From Cetobacterium sp. (GTDB lineage Bacteria > Fusobacteriota > Fusobacteriia > Fusobacteriales > Fusobacteriaceae): 64,000 bases of DNA. Under the pieces are notes generated by a model that did no database searches, was not told the DNA's origin, and worked only from the letters and a program-made list of their open reading frames with translations. This document shows positions 3,968-12,250 of this stretch, piece by piece (position 1 is the stretch's first letter; each line of letters opens with the position of its first letter). Position numbers and translations under genes: made by a program. The DNA is taken from the NCBI RefSeq assembly GCF_051649505.1, contig NZ_JBOFHF010000039.1, one strand, 5' to 3'.

Positions 3968-4172
3968 TTCAACCTCCTAAAATAAGATACCACAGTATAC
4001 AACTTAGAGTTAGCTATAAGGCAAGAGATTTTTTTGAATCTAACAGTTCAGTTTACATGAATAATAGAAAATGATAAACTATAAGAAAAAATGAGAGGGG
4101 CGGATTGAATTGAGAGATATACTTCAAAGTTATTCAGAGGATTTGGAAGAGTTTATAAAAACTAGAAAATAG

Positions 4173-7067
4173 TTGGGGGATGCTATGAGATATGAATTTA
4201 TAAGTAATACTAATTTTGAGAGCAATAAAAATTTATATAGATATTTAGAAGAGGGGTTTCAAGATGCAAAGGAGTTTTTCTTTTCAGTTGCATTTATAAA
4301 TTTTGCGGGAGTACAGATACTTTTAGATGTTTTGAAAAAAACAGAAAATTCAGACATTAAAGGTAGAATTTTAACAACAAACTATCTACATTTTACAGAA
4401 CTTAAAGCAGTCCAATACCTAAAAAGATTTAAAAATATAGAAGTGAAATTTTTTGATAGCGATAAGATGGAAGGCTTTCATACAAAGGGATATGTGTTTG
4501 AATATGAAGATAGTTATAAAGCGATAATAGGTTCATCTAATCTCACGAAAAGTGGTCTTAAAAGTAATATAGAGTGGAATACAGGAGTAGTAACTCCTAA
4601 AGGAAGTGAATTTATAACGGGAATATTAAATGAATTCAATTACCTTTGGGAAAAAGCAGTTGAAAATGTAAATCCATATTTAGTTTCATATGTTAAAAAG
4701 CAAGAGAAAGTTGTAAAAAAAGTCCAGAAAAACGAGTATTTAATGGCAGCTGAAGATCATGAGTTTGGAATCTATGACGAATGCGAGATAGAACCTAACT
4801 ATATGCAAAAAGAAGCCTTGAAAAACTTAGAGGATTTAAGGGTTTATAAAGAGAAAAGAGCACTGTGTATAGCGGCTACCGGAACAGGAAAAACATATCT
4901 AGGAGCTTTTGATGTGAGAGCATTTAAAGCTAAACGACTTCTTTTTGTTGTTCATAACGAGGAGATATTAAACTCAGCTATAGCTACTTTTAAAAAGGTT
5001 TTGCCGAATAAAACTATGGGGAAGTTCACAGGAAATTTTAAAAATAGTGATAGAGATTATGTTTTTGCTACAGTTCAAACTTTGAGTTTAAGATACTCTG
5101 AATTTCATGAAAAAGAGTTTGATTACATAATAGTTGATGAGGCTCATCATATAACAGCGAAGAGCTATGAACCTATTTTGAATTACTTTAAACCTCAATT
5201 TTTATTAGGATTAACAGCTACCCCAGAAAGATGTGACGGTGGAAATATATATGAAGTTTTCGATATGAATGTTCCTGTTGAGATACGTTTACAGGAAGCT
5301 TTAGATAAAGAGTTAGTTGTACCATTTCATTATTATGGGATAAAAGATATAGAGGAAGTTGATTTATCAAAGGTAGATTTAAATGATATATCTGCAGTTG
5401 CTAGAATTTTAAATACAGAGAGACGTGTTGATTTTATAATAGAGAAAATGAATTTCTATGGATATAGTGGAGAGAAAAGGAAAACAGTCGGTTTTTGTAT
5501 ATCAGTAGAACATGCAGAGTTTATGGCTAGTCAGTTTGTTCAAAAGGGAATAAAAGCTGTCTCGATTACAGGAACAGATAGTAAGGATACTAGAGATCGA
5601 GTTCTAAAAAGTTTTAGAGAAAGTGATGATTTAGAAGTTATATTTACGGTAAATCTATTCAATGAAGGAGTAGATATCCCGTGTATAAATAGTATTTTAA
5701 TGCTAAGGCCAACAGCTTCACCAATTATTTTTACTCAACAACTTGGAAGAGGTCTTAGACACTCTGAAAATAAAGAGTTTCTAACAGTTATAGATTTCAT
5801 AGGAAATCACTCGAGAGCTTTTTTAATAGCCTTAGCTTTGATTGGTAAAAAAGGCTATGATAAAGAGAGTGTAAAGATAGCGGTAAAAAGAGATTTTGAT
5901 AACTTATCAAAGTTTGTTCATATAAAAATGGATGAGATTTGTAAAGAGGAGATTTTAAAACAGCTCGATAATCAGAATTTTAATAGTTTAAAATATCTGA
6001 AAGAGGAGTACAAAGAGTTTAAAGATATTTTACAAGGTAGAGTCCCAATGCCAATAAATTTTACTCAGTATGAAGAAGCACCAGTTTTCTATAAATACTC
6101 AAAACTTCAAAAATCTTATTTAGATTTTTTGGAGAAAATAAAAGAACCTATTTTTGAAAGAACTGAAAATCAAAAAGTTGTAATAAGAGAGTTTGAAAGA
6201 ATGTTGCCTATAAAAAGAGTTCATGAGTTCGTAATAGCTCACGAGATTATATCAAAAGTTAAGTTACTAAAAGAGGATGAGATAAAAATCTTAGGAAAAT
6301 ATATTGATGTGATATCTTTGAAACATACAAAAGTTACTTTAAACCACGCTAAAGATTTTCTATGTGGAGATTATTCAGATTCTAGTGATTTAAAAAGATG
6401 TGAGCCCTTATTCTTAAGAAAAGGCGACTCTATTGAAATGAGTGAAGTTTTAAAAGAGGTTTTAAAATCTAAAGAGATTAAAGATTACATTCTTCAAATT
6501 TTAGACTATGGACTTTTGAAATATAGTGAAATTTTTGGTAAAAAAGATTATGGATTCCCGTTTTTAAAATTGTATGAAAACTATAATATGAAAGATGTTG
6601 CGTTAATTTGTAACTATGAAAAAAAGCATAGTGCTTTTAGGGGAAGTGGATTATTAACAAATGGTAATGATTATTTTTTATTTGTAGAATTACATAAAGA
6701 TGAGGATATAAAAGAAAGTATAAAATATAATGATAAGATATTGGATAGATATCACTTCCAATGGGAGAGTCCAAACTCAACAAAAGTTGAGAGTGAGAGA
6801 GGACAAAATATAGTTAGAAATAGAGAACGTGGAATAAATTTACATATATTTTTAAGAAAGATTAAAGAGATTGATGGAAAGATTCAGCCATATATCTATA
6901 TTGGAAAAGGTGACACTGTAGATTATAGTGGTGAAAAACCAATTAGAACAAAGTTGAAGTTAGAGAATCCACTTTCAAAAGAGATGTATGTTGAGTTGAC
7001 AGAAAGAGTAGAGCGTTACTTAGAAGTCGCTGAAAAGAAAAAGTTGGAGAATAGGAGAGAGATATGA
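4173..7067 (+). CDS. PLD-nuclease / SF2 helicase / DUF3427 protein, SauUSI-like putative type IV (modification-dependent) restriction enzyme; start may be the ATG at 4185
   Basis: N-terminal FHTKGY...GSSNLT (HxK/GSxN PLD motif), ATGTGKT, DEAHH, TATPER, QQLGRGLR, and a C-terminal Y.D......F.WES DUF3427-type segment. Confidence 0.75.
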   Translation: MGDAMRYEFISNTNFESNKNLYRYLEEGFQDAKEFFFSVAFINFAGVQILLDVLKKTENSDIKGRILTTNYLHFTELKAVQYLKRFKNIEVKFFDSDKMEGFHTKGYVFEYEDSYKAIIGSSNLTKSGLKSNIEWNTGVVTPKGSEFITGILNEFNYLWEKAVENVNPYLVSYVKKQEKVVKKVQKNEYLMAAEDHEFGIYDECEIEPNYMQKEALKNLEDLRVYKEKRALCIAATGTGKTYLGAFDVRAFKAKRLLFVVHNEEILNSAIATFKKVLPNKTMGKFTGNFKNSDRDYVFATVQTLSLRYSEFHEKEFDYIIVDEAHHITAKSYEPILNYFKPQFLLGLTATPERCDGGNIYEVFDMNVPVEIRLQEALDKELVVPFHYYGIKDIEEVDLSKVDLNDISAVARILNTERRVDFIIEKMNFYGYSGEKRKTVGFCISVEHAEFMASQFVQKGIKAVSITGTDSKDTRDRVLKSFRESDDLEVIFTVNLFNEGVDIPCINSILMLRPTASPIIFTQQLGRGLRHSENKEFLTVIDFIGNHSRAFLIALALIGKKGYDKESVKIAVKRDFDNLSKFVHIKMDEICKEEILKQLDNQNFNSLKYLKEEYKEFKDILQGRVPMPINFTQYEEAPVFYKYSKLQKSYLDFLEKIKEPIFERTENQKVVIREFERMLPIKRVHEFVIAHEIISKVKLLKEDEIKILGKYIDVISLKHTKVTLNHAKDFLCGDYSDSSDLKRCEPLFLRKGDSIEMSEVLKEVLKSKEIKDYILQILDYGLLKYSEIFGKKDYGFPFLKLYENYNMKDVALICNYEKKHSAFRGSGLLTNGNDYFLFVELHKDEDIKESIKYNDKILDRYHFQWESPNSTKVESERGQNIVRNRERGINLHIFLRKIKEIDGKIQPYIYIGKGDTVDYSGEKPIRTKLKLENPLSKEMYVELTERVERYLEVAEKKKLENRREI

Positions 7068-7535: not shown

Positions 7536-7575
7536 AAAAGCTATAGGGATTTTGATATCCCTATAGCTTTTTCTT
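7536..7575. terminator. Bidirectional terminator
   Basis: AAAAGCTATAGGGAT/ATCCCTATAGCTTTT 15-bp stem between the convergent NUDIX and argH genes. Confidence 0.85.
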
Positions 7576-8989
7576 AAAATATATCGTTTAATCTATAGTT
7601 AATAAGATCTATTTTGGCCCCCGCGATAAATCTATTTAAATCTTCTAGATGAGATAACAAACTATCTTTACTAGGTCCACCTAAGGACTTTCTTTTTTGT
7701 ACACACGTTTTAATAGCTATATTTTCATATATATCCCCGCTAAAAATATATGAAAACTCTTTGTACTTCTCTAAAGAAAGAGTTTCTAGATTTAAATCGT
7801 TTTGAATACAATAGCTCACAATTGCCCCCGTTATTTTGTAAGCCTCTCTAAAACTCATTCCTCTCACAGTCAGATAATCAGCAACATCAGTCGCATTTAT
7901 AAAACCATCATTACATGCTAAAAGTAAAACCTCATCTTTCACTTTTAGAGTTTTAACCATTCCAACAAATACCTGTAAACATCCTTTGACAGTATCTACA
8001 GCATCAAAGAAAGCCTCTTTATCCTCTTGCATATCTTTATTGTATGCCAAAGGAATCCCTTTCATAGTAGTTAAAAGTGCCATCAAATCACCATAAACTC
8101 TACCTGTTTTCCCCCTAACTAGTTCGGCTGCATCTGGATTTTTCTTTTGTGGCATAATGCTGCTTCCTGTTGAGAAAGAGTCACTTAATTCAATATATCC
8201 ATAGTCATTTGAGCTATAGATTATAATTTCCTCTGAGAATCTAGAAAGATGCATCATAATAATAGAAAGTCCTGACATAATCTCAATCAGATAATCTCTG
8301 TCACTAACTCCATCTAAAGAGTTTAAAGTAGGTCCTTTAAAACCTAGAATTGCAGCTGTAAACTCTCTATCTATTGGATAAGTTGTTCCTGCAAGAGCAG
8401 CACTTCCAAGAGGAGAGAAATCCATAAGCTCAGCAGCATTTTCTAGACGCTTGAAGTCTCTTTTAAACATCTCTGAGTATGCAAACATATAGTGTCCAAA
8501 AGATATGGGTTGAGCTTTTTGAAGATGGGTAAACCCAGGCATATATGTTTCAAAGTTTTTCTCTCCAAGCTCTGTTGTAACCTCAATCAACTCTAAAAGA
8601 AATGATTGAATCTTTTTAACTTCATCCTTTGCAAAGAGCCTCATATCAACTGCAACTTGGTCATTTCTACTACGTCCAGTATGTAGCTTTTTTCCAACAT
8701 CCCCTATTCTATCAATTAGAATTTTCTCAATATTCATATGAATATCTTCGTAAGTTGTACAAAACTCAACTTCACCTCTTTCAATACTTTCTAAAATCTC
8801 GATTAAAGTTTTCTCTATAAGCTCTCCATCCTCTTTTGAAATAATCTCCATTTTAGATAGCCCTCTGACATGAGCGATGCTTCCCATAATGTCATATCTA
8901 TATAGTCTTTTATCAAAGTGTATCGACGAGTGAAAATCTAGGATTAAATCACTTGCTGCTTCTTTGAATCTTCCTGAAAAGTACTGCAT
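7574..8989 (-). CDS. argH: Argininosuccinate lyase
   Basis: HTGRSRNDQ, PGFTHLQKAQP and the GSSIMPQKKNPD signature. Confidence 0.97.
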   Translation of the reverse strand: MQYFSGRFKEAASDLILDFHSSIHFDKRLYRYDIMGSIAHVRGLSKMEIISKEDGELIEKTLIEILESIERGEVEFCTTYEDIHMNIEKILIDRIGDVGKKLHTGRSRNDQVAVDMRLFAKDEVKKIQSFLLELIEVTTELGEKNFETYMPGFTHLQKAQPISFGHYMFAYSEMFKRDFKRLENAAELMDFSPLGSAALAGTTYPIDREFTAAILGFKGPTLNSLDGVSDRDYLIEIMSGLSIIMMHLSRFSEEIIIYSSNDYGYIELSDSFSTGSSIMPQKKNPDAAELVRGKTGRVYGDLMALLTTMKGIPLAYNKDMQEDKEAFFDAVDTVKGCLQVFVGMVKTLKVKDEVLLLACNDGFINATDVADYLTVRGMSFREAYKITGAIVSYCIQNDLNLETLSLEKYKEFSYIFSGDIYENIAIKTCVQKRKSLGGPSKDSLLSHLEDLNRFIAGAKIDLINYRLNDIF

Positions 8990-10494
8990 TTTTCATCTCC
9001 CTTAAAACCTTTTTGTGTAATCAGTTTTATACCAATTAAAATTAAAATCTGTGTAATGATAGCAAATACTATTAAGTAGCTATTTTCAGCGAAACCACCT
9101 ATTAAAAACACAGTTATCGCTAAACCTGCATTTATAAGAGCATATGGAGTCTGAGTTTTAACGTGATTTATATGATCACAACCAGCACCAGCAGATGAAA
9201 GAATCGTTGTATCTGAGATTGGAGAAACATGATCTCCAAAAAGTCCGCCTGAAAGAATAGCTCCTATTGTAACGTAAAGCGGAGCGTTAAAAGTCAGAGC
9301 CATAGGAATAACAAGAGGTATCATAATACTAAAAGTTCCCCATGAGCTCCCAGTTGAAAACGAGATTATAGCTCCAAATAAAAATGCTATAGCTGGAATA
9401 AACCCAGAGTTTATATCTATTGATTTTAAGAAACTGATTAGAAATTGGTCAGCTCCTAAATCTTTGTTGATAACTCCTAAAGACCAAGCCAAAATAAGGA
9501 TTATCACAATCTCACTCATCTTTTTCATACCATTAAGATAGATTGAGAATATCTCTTTGAAAGTTTTAGATTTATAAAATAGCATCAGACCCATAAGAAC
9601 TAAAGCAGCATATAGATATCCACTTGTAAGAGCGGCTCTAAAAGCTCCCCCAGAAACTCTAGAAGTTATAAATGAAACTCCTAGCATCGAGAAAAGTGTT
9701 CCTAGAAGAACAAGGATTGGCAACCAAACAAAAGAGCCACGAGCATTTTCAACACGATACTTTGAGTTATCAACTGTCATTTCATTTTCAGCAACCTCGC
9801 TTTCTAAAGAGAGATTATCTTCAAAAGTTTTCATAGGTCCAAAATCTAACTTTAAAAGAGTCAGAGTTGGAATTATAGTTAAAGCTAGCAGTGGATATAT
9901 GTTAAAAGGTATCGATTTTATAAAACTTTCGTAGTCTGAAAGATTCAGATTTAAAAGCTCAAACTCTTTTTGAAGCAATCCAATTATGAAAACTCCCCAT
10001 CCGATAAACGGGACTAAAACCGCGACTGGTGATGAAGTTGAATCTAAAATGAAAGCTAGTTTTTCCTTAGATATTTTCAATCTTTTAAAAAATGGATTGA
10101 AGATAGGTCCTACAATTAGAGGGGTTCCCAAATCAGAGAAAAATATCATAATCCCTGTGAAATATGCAAGAAGCTGAGCTTTTCTCTTTGAGTTGATAGA
10201 GTTTTTAAAACTTTCAGCAAAAGCGTAAGCTCCTCCAGACATCATCATAAGTTCAATAAATCCACCTATAAAAATCATAAGCACAATAACCCCAGCATTG
10301 TAGCTATCTGTAAGCTGATTTATAAAATATTTACCAACTAGAACCTTTGTAGTCTCTAGCGGATTATAGTTATTTAATATAAAAATTCCACAGAATACAC
10401 TGGAAAAAAGTGACAAAACTACGTTTTTAGTTTTGATTGATAAGAAAACTGCAATTAAAATTGGAACGATAGATAAAACCCCGAATGAAACCAT
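8944..10494 (-). CDS. NhaC-family Na+/H+ antiporter / amino-acid transporter
   Basis: Multi-TM protein with EKLAFILDSTSSP, FSTGSSWGTF and GGLFGDHVSPISDTTILSS motifs. Confidence 0.85.
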   Translation of the reverse strand: MVSFGVLSIVPILIAVFLSIKTKNVVLSLFSSVFCGIFILNNYNPLETTKVLVGKYFINQLTDSYNAGVIVLMIFIGGFIELMMMSGGAYAFAESFKNSINSKRKAQLLAYFTGIMIFFSDLGTPLIVGPIFNPFFKRLKISKEKLAFILDSTSSPVAVLVPFIGWGVFIIGLLQKEFELLNLNLSDYESFIKSIPFNIYPLLALTIIPTLTLLKLDFGPMKTFEDNLSLESEVAENEMTVDNSKYRVENARGSFVWLPILVLLGTLFSMLGVSFITSRVSGGAFRAALTSGYLYAALVLMGLMLFYKSKTFKEIFSIYLNGMKKMSEIVIILILAWSLGVINKDLGADQFLISFLKSIDINSGFIPAIAFLFGAIISFSTGSSWGTFSIMIPLVIPMALTFNAPLYVTIGAILSGGLFGDHVSPISDTTILSSAGAGCDHINHVKTQTPYALINAGLAITVFLIGGFAENSYLIVFAIITQILILIGIKLITQKGFKGDEKCSTFQEDSKKQQVI

Positions 10495-10530
10495 TTTTTA
10501 AATCCTCCTGTATTTTAAAAATACTACCCC

Positions 10531-10561
10531 AAAAGAAAAGGCATACCAAAAATGGTATGCC
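10531..10561 (-). terminator. Intrinsic terminator inside the 5' leader of nhaC-argH (attenuator)
   Basis: Minus-strand GGCATACCA-TTTT-TGGTATGCC followed by TTTTCTTTT, about 37 nt upstream of the nhaC start. Confidence 0.8.
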
Positions 10562-10697
10562 GTAGAGAACTTAACTAAGTTAATAAGCGTATTGTTATGG
10601 CAGCGTCACAATACTTAATTCACAGGATCATAACATCTACGCCGTCGGCCTTAGGCTCCGTATATGGAAGTGAACTAACCTCTATTTTGTTTTATTA
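10562..10697 (-). ncRNA. Candidate cis-regulatory RNA (riboswitch-like leader), family not recognised
   Basis: GC-richer structured leader between a sigma70 promoter and an intrinsic terminator. UAGAGG (10684-10679) can pair with UCUCUA (10568-10563) to close the domain. Confidence 0.55.
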
Positions 10698-10703
10698 GAT
10701 GTG

Positions 10704-10733
10704 AGTATACTATATAATCACTCTAGTTGTCAA
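10704..10733 (-). promoter_or_regulatory. sigma70-type promoter of nhaC-argH
   Basis: TTGACA-N18-TATACT on the minus strand. Confidence 0.7.
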
Positions 10734-10750: not shown

Positions 10751-12250
10751 TTATTGAAGATTGATTAAAACTCCAATAACCATGAAGATTGAACCTAGAA
10801 GGAATAACACTCCTTGGAACTTAATTTGTAACTTTGCCCAAACTCCCCACTCAATTTTAGCAATTCCTAAAATCGCCATCAGAATTCCAGAAGTTGGAAC
10901 GAACATATTTGTAAATCCATCTCCTAGTTGGAAAGCAAGTACAGCAACTTGTCTAGGAACTCCAACTAAGTCAGCTAGAGGCGCCATTATTGGCATCGTA
11001 AGTGCAGCTTGTCCAGATCCAGATACAACAAAGAAGTTGAATGTAGATTGGAAGAAGTACATTGCGATTGCTGATACAGAAGCGTGTAGTTGACTTAGAA
11101 CTCCAGCCACTGAGTTAAGAACAGTGTTTAAAACTGTAGGTGTTCCAGCATCTACTCCACCAAGAACTAAAACAATTCCTTTTGCCATTCCAACAACTAA
11201 AGCAGCTCCGATTAACTCTTCTGCTCCTTTTCTGAAAGATATGGCGATATCATTTACTGTCATATTGTTTAAGTTGAATATAACTCCAATTATTCCAGAG
11301 ATAATACCCATAATTGTGAATTGAGCAGCGATTTCAGGAAGGTAGTAACCATGTAATACAACTCCCCAAACAATCCAAGACATCCCTAAGAATATAGTTA
11401 AGAATACTAATTTATGCCCAAACTTGAATTCTAAATCCTCTGCTTCATCAGCTTTGAAGTCATCTCTAAAGAATTTATCAGTCTCATAAGAGATAGATAA
11501 CTCAGGGTTAGCTTTAACTTTCTTAGCATAGTTCATAGTGTAAACAATTCCAAATGTCGTAAAGAATATCCACATAGCTATTCTAAACATAGCACCAGAA
11601 AGTACAGGAACTCCTGCAACCCCTTGAGCTATAGCCACACTGAATGGATTCATCCAAGAAGTAGCAAAACCAATTTGAGTTGAGATGTAGCACATAAAGA
11701 TTCCAGTGATAGAGTCATATCCCATTCCAACAACGATAGGAATTAAGATCATAGCAAACGGGATAGCTTCCTCTCCCATACCAAATACAGCTCCACCTAA
11801 AGAGAACAGTAGGAACACTAGAGGAATTAATAGTACCTCAGATCCTTTTGTCTTCTTTATCATATTTAGGATTCCAGCTTCAACAGCCTTAGTTTTTAAA
11901 ATAATACCGAAAGCTCCACCTGTAATCAGGATGAAAGCGATAATTCCAACAGCAGTTCCCCACTTATCTCCACTAACAAGACCTTCGAAGATATAGTTAG
12001 TTATACTCATATCTCCACCAGCAGCAAAAATAGGAACACCTTTAATAAGTGGCTTTCCAAGCTCATCTAAAGCATAGGCAAAACTTCCAGGAACAGGAAC
12101 AGTTCTAGTTTTCATACCAGCTTCAGTAGCGTATTGAATTTTTTCCATAGTAAAGCTTCCAACTGGGATAAGATACGTCAGTATAGCAGCAAAAATAACT
12201 ACGAAAAAGATGATGACATAGGTATCAGGTATTCTGATTTTTTTCTTCAT
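10751..12250 (-). CDS. yfcC: YfcC-family putative basic amino acid antiporter
   Basis: IPDTYVIIF N-terminus, GFATSWMNPF, SGSGQAALTMPIMAPLADL and FQLGDG motifs. Confidence 0.8.
   Translation of the reverse strand: MKKKIRIPDTYVIIFFVVIFAAILTYLIPVGSFTMEKIQYATEAGMKTRTVPVPGSFAYALDELGKPLIKGVPIFAAGGDMSITNYIFEGLVSGDKWGTAVGIIAFILITGGAFGIILKTKAVEAGILNMIKKTKGSEVLLIPLVFLLFSLGGAVFGMGEEAIPFAMILIPIVVGMGYDSITGIFMCYISTQIGFATSWMNPFSVAIAQGVAGVPVLSGAMFRIAMWIFFTTFGIVYTMNYAKKVKANPELSISYETDKFFRDDFKADEAEDLEFKFGHKLVFLTIFLGMSWIVWGVVLHGYYLPEIAAQFTIMGIISGIIGVIFNLNNMTVNDIAISFRKGAEELIGAALVVGMAKGIVLVLGGVDAGTPTVLNTVLNSVAGVLSQLHASVSAIAMYFFQSTFNFFVVSGSGQAALTMPIMAPLADLVGVPRQVAVLAFQLGDGFTNMFVPTSGILMAILGIAKIEWGVWAKLQIKFQGVLFLLGSIFMVIGVLINLQ

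Follow-up and report, generated by a model that had tools for sequence, protein, structure and literature searches.

A candidate riboswitch family upstream of nhaC-argH and other transport genes in Cetobacterium and related Fusobacteriaceae

In a 64,000-nucleotide stretch of a Cetobacterium sp. genome (contig NZ_JBOFHF010000039.1 of assembly GCF_051649505.1; the whole stretch is called the window below), a leader of ~165 nt lies on the minus strand upstream of nhaC, which encodes an NhaC-family transporter, and argH, which encodes argininosuccinate lyase. Comparison with relatives indicates that this leader is one member of a structured RNA family, which is almost certainly real and which appears to be a previously undescribed cis-acting family, and a riboswitch candidate, of Cetobacterium and three related genera of Fusobacteriaceae. 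The family shows two of the general features of riboswitches: (i), a structured aptamer whose helices covary and whose unpaired nucleotides are conserved; (ii), a recurrent same-orientation location in 5' untranslated regions (UTRs) before functionally related genes. Summed over all candidate ligands, a metabolite-binding riboswitch is the most economical reading and probably the correct one. The more specific statement, that this is a new riboswitch class in which arginine or a close pathway metabolite acts as the OFF signal for an arginine-acquisition regulon, is taken as a whole slightly less than an even bet.

The predicted fold is supported by covariation. It comprises helices P0 and P1, a long-range helix P2, a 3-bp hairpin, and hairpins P4 and P5 (Table 1). 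Across 59 distinct sequences standard pairs occupy 91.4% of the pair cells, against 30-47% when the partner strands are slid; compensatory changes are seen in 24 of the 32 pairs, and none of 500 shuffles matched the observed values on four of five measures, shuffle statistics being inflated by the kinship of the copies. RNAalifold independently recovers P1, P2, the small hairpin and P4. All six pairs of P0 show compensatory changes, mainly from the yjiH-B clade (AAAUAU/GUUAUUU), with 79-82% of its cells paired. P1 is paired in 97% of cells and compensated in 4/6 pairs (variants GUCCAC/GUGGAU, GUCUGC/GCAGAU, AUCUGU/ACAGAU and AUUUAC/GUAAAU), P2 is compensated in 6/6 (CACAA/UUGUG, AUAUGAU/AUCAUAU, UUACAA/UUGUAA, ACAG/CUGU), P4 is paired in 100% of cells and compensated in 5/7 (GUAUUAC/GUAAUAC, GAAUCAC/GUGAUUC, AUAUCAC/GUGAUAU, GUAUUGC/GCAAUAC), and P5 is paired in 92% and compensated in 3/4 (for example CCU/AGG in L049). 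In the columns of the 3-bp hairpin the only changes are C to U opposite G, plus one G to A. The covariation among relatives on which the first-pass annotation of the window had staked its riboswitch-like leader is therefore present. All helices of that annotation can be drawn at the positions it gives. Two of them, UAGAGG/UCUCUA (10684-10679 with 10568-10563) and GUAUUGU/ACAAUAC (10614-10608 with 10595-10589), correspond to P0 and P4 and are retained via compensatory changes. An 11-bp helix (10641-10629 with 10599-10588), drawn as a competitor of the latter, is used in the RNAfold minimum-energy fold of the single window copy but is not conserved, 66.8% of its cells being paired versus 65.2% in shuffles; it would take the 3' strands of both P2 and P4, UGUUAUG pairs instead with CAUAUAC, and the proposed competition lacks comparative support. 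Two further pairings were tried and dropped: an initial hand model (CUUCC with GGAG and a local GAU...AUC hairpin) was replaced by the long-range P2 on the basis of covariation and single-sequence folds, and a helix between the 3' strand of P1 and the 3' region of P0 was rejected because it does not follow the covariation of P1.

Two loop segments of the domain are strictly kept. The core consensus, GAGCCUAAGGCYGANGGY in the 59 distinct sequences from four genera, has 14 of 18 positions that never vary, and in one sequence the first G of the final GGY is replaced by A. The second segment, the P4 loop GANGCUGCCAUA (consensus A-N-GCUGCCAUA), is invariant in the 59 sequences. Invariant loops of this kind are a pattern typical of ligand pockets, which makes them the putative binding site, and a loop-loop contact (A)UGGC:GCCA(U) could form between the invariant segments. 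This candidate pseudoknot and a second, AGC:GCU, lie beyond covariation testing because their columns never vary.

The first-pass annotation had described a consensus promoter, a G+C-rich leader and a strong terminator before the ribosome-binding site, and all three lie on the minus strand where it had placed them (Table 1). Transcription presumably starts near 10697, and the (G)TATACT box is kept at equal distance in paralogous and orthologous copies. The aptamer has 40% G+C, versus 29-31% in the flanks, the folding z-score of the leader relative to shuffles is -2.6, and one terminator-like site was found where shuffles predict 0.1. In every copy with readable downstream sequence the terminator follows P0 by 0-11 nt and is itself followed by a short hairpin and a Shine-Dalgarno sequence (SD); its 5' arm, G(G)CAUAC, is kept across the genera of the family.

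Table 1. Features of the window leader, its neighbouring genes and the further motif copies of the same genome (window positions)
Feature	Position	Strand	Description
Promoter	10733..10704	minus	-35 TTGACA 10733-10728, 18-nt spacer, -10 TATACT 10709-10704; 11/12 consensus matches
Aptamer-like domain	10563..10684	minus	~122 nt, closed by P0; 141-151 bits with covariance models R1/R2
P0 5' strand	10679..10684	minus	UAGAGG; partner UUCUCUA 10569-10563 (G10679 with U10569)
P0 3' strand	10563..10569	minus	UUCUCUA; terminator starts 1 nt further on
P1 5' strand	10670..10675	minus	GUUCAC; partner GUGAAU 10623-10618
P1 3' strand	10618..10623	minus	GUGAAU
P2 5' strand	10660..10666	minus	CAUAUAC; long-range partner GUUAUG 10634-10629
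P2 3' strand	10629..10634	minus	GUUAUG; stretch paired with CAUAACA in the first-pass annotation
Invariant core	10641..10658	minus	GAGCCUAAGGCCGACGGC; within the P2 loop; holds 3-bp hairpin GCC-GAN-GGC (10649-10647 with 10643-10641)
P4 hairpin	10589..10614	minus	GUAUUGU 10614-10608 with ACAAUAC 10595-10589
P4 loop	10607-10596	minus	GACGCUGCCAUA; 12 nt, nearly invariant
P5	10570..10587	minus	AU-rich hairpin of variable length, CUUA...UAAG
Intrinsic terminator	10531..10561	minus	9-bp G+C-rich stem GGCAUACCA-UUUU-UGGUAUGCC at 10561..10540, then UUUUCUUUU
Post-terminator spacer	10492..10530	minus	GGGGUAG, small AU hairpin ~10524-10510, SD AGGAGG 10509-10504, ATG 10494-10492
nhaC	8944..10494	minus	NhaC-family transporter, 516 aa
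argH	7574..8989	minus	Argininosuccinate lyase; TIGR00838, 594 bits vs cut-off 280
yfcC	10751-12250		Without a motif copy in the window genome
Copy 1	window		Before nhaC-argH
Copy 2	contig C13		Before AstE/AspA-like gene
Copies 3 and 4	contigs C36 and C39		Before paralogous 'Gate'-domain membrane proteins (NCBI name: YjiH family)

The 59 distinct sequences represent 87 matches gathered. A DNA search of relatives and covariance models found four copies in the window genome (Table 1), and the maximum per Fusobacteriaceae genome is five. When covariance models built from the collected copies were run on 131 Fusobacteriaceae genomes (15 genera), the motif was found in 21/22 Cetobacterium genomes and in three further genera (3/3, 9/16 and 4/11 genomes); it was not found in the remaining 11 of the 15 genera, nor in the other families of the phylum sampled, nor, outside the phylum, in 151 sampled genomes of Roseburia's phylum and in five single genomes. 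The first-pass annotation had suggested comparing nhaC leaders in Fusobacteriota; the motif was found in Cetobacterium and the three genera, not in the other Fusobacteriota sampled. In metagenomes, a strict pattern scan picked up 41 loci, many of them from fish- or human-gut samples. Losses and truncations are also seen. In genus g13, 7/16 genomes carry no leader at the yjiH ortholog, the gene lying 20-40 nt after an upstream methyltransferase gene (L252-L257, L264). Upstream of yfcC in C. somerae and relatives (L064:199-324, L067:1965-2090, L068:493-618), truncated copies keep P2, the invariant core, P4, P5 and the terminator; P0 and P1 are missing from them, as the place of the P1 5' strand is taken by the -10 box TATACT.

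The genes behind the copies form a short and coherent list. A downstream gene is readable in 51 of the 59 distinct copies, the motif always lies in its 5' UTR, and all belong to five types: YjiH family (29), AstE/AspA-like (10), nhaC (8), yfcC (3) and argH directly (1). The claim that the window leader controls nhaC-argH stands insofar as an NhaC-family gene and a bona fide argH lie downstream; the element is not specific to nhaC, YjiH being its commonest partner. Among the nhaC copies, argH comes next in both loci with sufficient downstream sequence, and at L045 argH follows the motif directly, without nhaC. The nhaC and argH reading frames share 46 nt in the window (8944-8989), and the pair with its overlapping open reading frames (ORFs) is kept down to 66% identity; this overlap, kept across Fusobacteriaceae, suggests translational coupling. 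The NhaC-family product is weakly similar to Tet(35) and to models of the ArcD arginine/ornithine antiporter, and the gene upstream of the leader encodes a YfcC-type 'putative basic amino acid antiporter' (NF008611, 739 bits). A polar amino-acid ABC transporter follows the second yjiH paralog of the window genome. YjiH genes are also linked to such transporters in two gene orders (L258-L262 in genera g19/g35; L033:2327-5390), and this association hints that YjiH proteins may act in amino-acid uptake. The AstE/AspA-like protein carries a signal peptide, and its nearest solved relatives are an N-acetyl-diaminobutyrate deacetylase and succinylglutamate desuccinylase-type enzymes.

Besides argH as a direct target, the link to arginine comes from relatives in which the RNA is missing. 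An uncultured Cetobacterium (L091:2221-2460) and Fusobacterium sp. MFO224 (L093:2205-2465) keep nhaC-argH without the motif; between promoter and terminator, their leaders have instead a short ORF preceded by an SD. The encoded peptides are rich in arginine: MKLRTLLRERQTNNSINKELSETRL in L091 has 4 Arg in 25 residues (P = 0.012 at a local Arg frequency of 3.6%) and MLNIRTRRIRIKFNNMSALYLIDRLF in L093 has 5 in 26, including RTRRIR (P = 0.002 at the same frequency). By its sequence, this layout is that of classical arginine attenuation, in which the operon would answer to arginine and be read through when arginine is scarce, and the locus looks like an evolutionary swap between the RNA motif and an Arg leader peptide. 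An arginine-related ligand, which the first-pass annotation had proposed from the adjacency of argH, is still the best guess and gains from these peptides at the same operon. Both kinds of leader occupy the same place between promoter and terminator before nhaC-argH, presumably with the same output of read-through at scarce arginine. They differ in what they would sense: the attenuators sense charged tRNA(Arg) via a translated Arg-rich ORF, whereas the window leader has no SD-preceded ORF but a tertiary-looking conserved fold. No conserved SD-preceded ORF was found in the four motif leaders of the window genome, which do not qualify as leader-peptide attenuators. At yjiH orthologs without the motif there are no Arg leader peptides either; the spacer is missing, or the gene ends an ABC operon. 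Among regulatory proteins, ArgR/AhrC would serve the logic proposed here, repressing arginine uptake and synthesis genes in response to arginine, but as a protein repressor on DNA operators. None of the 131 Fusobacteriaceae genomes searched has the ArgR C-terminal domain; a complementary distribution of ArgR and the motif was considered and is uninformative, ArgR being missing family-wide. Arginine deiminase is absent from the window genome, which has two canonical lysine riboswitches (RF00168; 119 and 106.9 bits). In the argG operon of the same genome (L214, G000 contig C27:32162-35644), a promoter (489-518) is followed by a leader ORF with an SD before it, MTMKRILRTQIKITKKNMFLCALKNHLINFVML (552-653), which starts MTMKRILRTQ..., and by a terminator (690-716), with an amino-acid-binding-protein gene (SBP) and then argG downstream; the 119-bit lysine riboswitch lies directly 3' of argG (L214 2731-2905).

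We hypothesize the following mechanism. A weak P0 would enclose a four-way arrangement made of a P1 plus P2 arm, a P4 arm and the variable P5 arm, in which the two invariant loops would form a small-molecule pocket, possibly via the (A)UGGC:GCCA(U) contact. With ligand bound, the domain would be locked, the terminator would form and transcription would end ahead of the gene; at low ligand levels, RNA polymerase would read through. The signal may be arginine itself or a metabolite of its pathway very close to it. The regulon would then serve the acquisition of arginine and basic amino acids: it would comprise two YjiH transporters, one of them accompanied by a polar amino-acid ABC system, the NhaC-family transporter together with argH, a secreted hydrolase of the AstE/AspA type and, in some species, also the basic amino acid antiporter of YfcC type. 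The comparisons show the family, its fold, the invariant loops, the terminators and the gene set; from these we infer the ligand, its direct binding, the OFF polarity and the switching helix. The boldest form of this proposal, a first natural L-arginine riboswitch acting as sensor in an ArgR-free family and interchangeable with Arg-codon leader-peptide attenuation at nhaC-argH, is doubtful as a whole.

Several points weigh against this proposal, besides the kinship of the copies. The first concerns the switch itself. No mutually exclusive antiterminator was identified among the aptamer and terminator pairings, and P0 shares no nucleotides with the terminator. Between aptamer columns and the terminator 5' arm, helices of 5 bp or more occur only at scattered positions, and RNAduplex energies of aptamer with 5' arm (~-6.7 kcal/mol) are no better than those with shuffled arms (-6.2 kcal/mol). 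The antiterminator that the first-pass annotation had envisaged, CGUAGA/UCUACG, is already broken in the leaders of nhaC orthologs, where GAUGA and UCUAGGGC stand in its place. One pairing recurs, between a P2 strand, (U)AUGUU(U), and the terminator (A)GGCAU(A). The yjiH-A and yfcC copies form 7 bp of it, the nhaC copies 5 bp; the yjiH-B clade has the form ACGUU:AGCGU, with one compensatory change, and the best helix has a mean of 5.0 bp versus 4.1 bp in shuffles. This pairing is weak, however, and absent in the AstE-like and g13 copies. If real, it would give a simple OFF switch in which ligand-locked P2 hides the antiterminator strand, which we offer only as a lead. Aptamer-terminator coupling and its polarity remain proposals, because no competing pairing exceeds the shuffled controls. 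A second set of points concerns the signal. That any small molecule is bound is purely inferred; YjiH, the commonest target and the sole one in genus g13, has no substrate on record; the leader-peptide swap is only suggestive, as one operon may answer to different signals across species; and the window genome's argG operon lacks the motif, its leader ORF having only 2 Arg among 33 residues, not a significant enrichment.

The region between terminator and start codon has features of its own. Most yjiH-A copies have UUGGCA, a complement of the invariant UGCCA in the P4 loop, directly behind the U-tract (for example L032 ~4150-4215, minus strand), and 3' of it a hairpin CAGAAAUUU/AAAUUUCUG adjoins the SD. 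The nhaC and AstE-like copies have UUUUGGGGUAG plus a different small hairpin after the terminator (window 10510-10530). A role of the P0 3' strand as anti-SD was considered and rejected, as the yjiH-B clade alters P0 while its SD is unchanged.

Of the other explanations, the one that survives best keeps the riboswitch and changes its ligand, to another amino acid or a derivative (ornithine, citrulline, argininosuccinate, lysine, histidine, an N-acyl amino acid or a dipeptide) or to an ion that the YjiH, NhaC or YfcC transporters carry, or else makes it a substrate-induced ON switch; we consider it unlikely, though it deserves serious attention. The most widespread target, YjiH, does not have an assigned substrate, the yjiH gene of E. 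coli presumably adjoins that of isoaspartyl dipeptidase, and the solved relatives of the AstE/AspA-like protein deacylate N-acetyl-diaminobutyrate or succinyl-glutamate, all of which would suit another ligand. But argH is directly controlled, once even without nhaC (L045), and Arg-rich leader peptides replace the RNA at nhaC-argH; lysine is already covered by canonical lysine riboswitches in the window genome. A strong stand-alone terminator with no visible antiterminator would fit a default-OFF, ligand-ON design, whereas in typical ON switches P0 would overlap the terminator arm, which is not the case here.

It is improbable, in our estimate, that the terminator is instead controlled by a macromolecule, whether a regulatory protein that binds the RNA or, much as in a T-box, uncharged tRNA(Arg). 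A missing RNA-only antiterminator would be expected if a factor stabilised or blocked the structure, and the invariant UGGC, which resembles the acceptor-binding UGGN of T-boxes, could pair with a tRNA 3' GCCA end (GCCA is also contained in the P4 loop). In low-G+C bacteria T-boxes, like the motif, are leaders with a terminator ahead of genes for amino-acid transport and biosynthesis. In contrast to them, the motif lacks stem I, the specifier loop and any antiterminator bulge that would overlap the terminator, and it has half the length usual for T-boxes. Rfam scans at E<=10 show neither a T-box match (RF00230) nor T-box features, and aptamer and terminator do not overlap. A conserved codon-like triplet was not found, the variable P4 loop position being C, A or U. 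No regulator gene is conserved beside the motif copies, and a compact junction with invariant loops in up to five unlinked leaders is the usual signature of a metabolite aptamer.

A structured RNA that senses nothing (a stable 5' leader, a trans-acting small RNA released at the terminator, or an element of mRNA stability or processing) seems decidedly more remote. It would account for the apparent structural independence of aptamer and terminator and for the conservation of the terminator arm sequence, and ~165-nt terminated transcripts from up to five loci would share the invariant loops. It sits poorly, however, with the fixed orientation and placement of the element, always in the 5' UTR of one of a coherent group of transport and arginine genes, with the stand-in of a leader-peptide attenuator at nhaC-argH, and with the loss of the element together with the intergenic spacer in some g13 genomes, where yjiH is left fused to the upstream operon.

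As for known classes, the first-pass annotation could match none, and the searches agree. Rfam 15 (4227 covariance models) gave no match at gathering score in the 64-kb window; at E<=10 the leader drew only chance matches to unrelated families (best 20.7 bits vs a cut-off of 60), RF00168 gave no match to it at E<=10 with permissive filters, and at three paralogous loci no match at E<=0.1 fell within the leaders. This negative is meaningful, because the RF00168 model detects two lysine riboswitches in the same genome. A side match at L033:148-530, upstream of mgtE, was cspA thermoregulator-like (52.8 bits, under the gathering score of 78). A full-text literature search did not find a description of the motif, and the phrase 'arginine riboswitch' gave two passing mentions and no described class. 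FuFi-1, a conserved structured RNA of Fusobacteria and Firmicutes with a Rho-independent terminator behind it (Weinberg et al. 2017, PMC5737381), is alike in combining a conserved structure with a terminator but reportedly lies in 5' UTRs only rarely, where the motif always lies; it was rejected on this ground and because no Rfam family matched the leader (FuFi-1 included if it is in Rfam 15). The GC-IGR survey of the Breaker laboratory (Yale) covered F. nucleatum ATCC 25586, whose genus is presumably among the 11 motif-free Fusobacteriaceae genera, and lists HRC-7-1 and HRC-7-2 without details (PMC8632094). The glutamine (glnA) and glycine riboswitches are likewise natural amino-acid classes, that of glutamine also being small and confined to narrow lineages, but their sequences and folds are unrelated, they gave no Rfam match, and they precede other gene sets.

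The lysine riboswitch (RF00168, L-box) bears the closest general likeness: an amino-acid leader RNA with a multi-helix junction, a terminator, and transporter and biosynthetic targets, present in Fusobacteriota including the window genome. The leader also begins with AGAGG, as lysine riboswitches presumably do. That it is a diverged known class such as a minimised lysine riboswitch, whose classical targets include NhaC-family transporters (lysW, PMC5584792), is nevertheless very improbable: RF00168 is silent on the leader at E<=10, yet scores 119 and 107 bits at two loci of the same genome, the four paralogs draw no Rfam match at E<=0.1, the motif is smaller (four helices in ~122 nt vs a five-way junction in ~180 nt), with another helix layout and other invariant nucleotides, and it targets argH rather than lysine genes.

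To our knowledge, only three proteinogenic amino acids have a described natural riboswitch: lysine, glycine and glutamine. A well-supported orphan class whose regulon points to arginine comes with a short list of candidate ligands, and the link between its aptamer and its terminator is of interest for riboswitch mechanics in itself. It could explain how arginine is sensed in Fusobacteriaceae that lack ArgR, and it would give a physiological context to three little-understood protein families: YjiH, this NhaC subgroup and the secreted AstE/AspA-like enzymes. Cetobacterium is a dominant commensal of fish and mammal guts, meaning that the proposed regulon would bear on amino-acid exchange in the gut.

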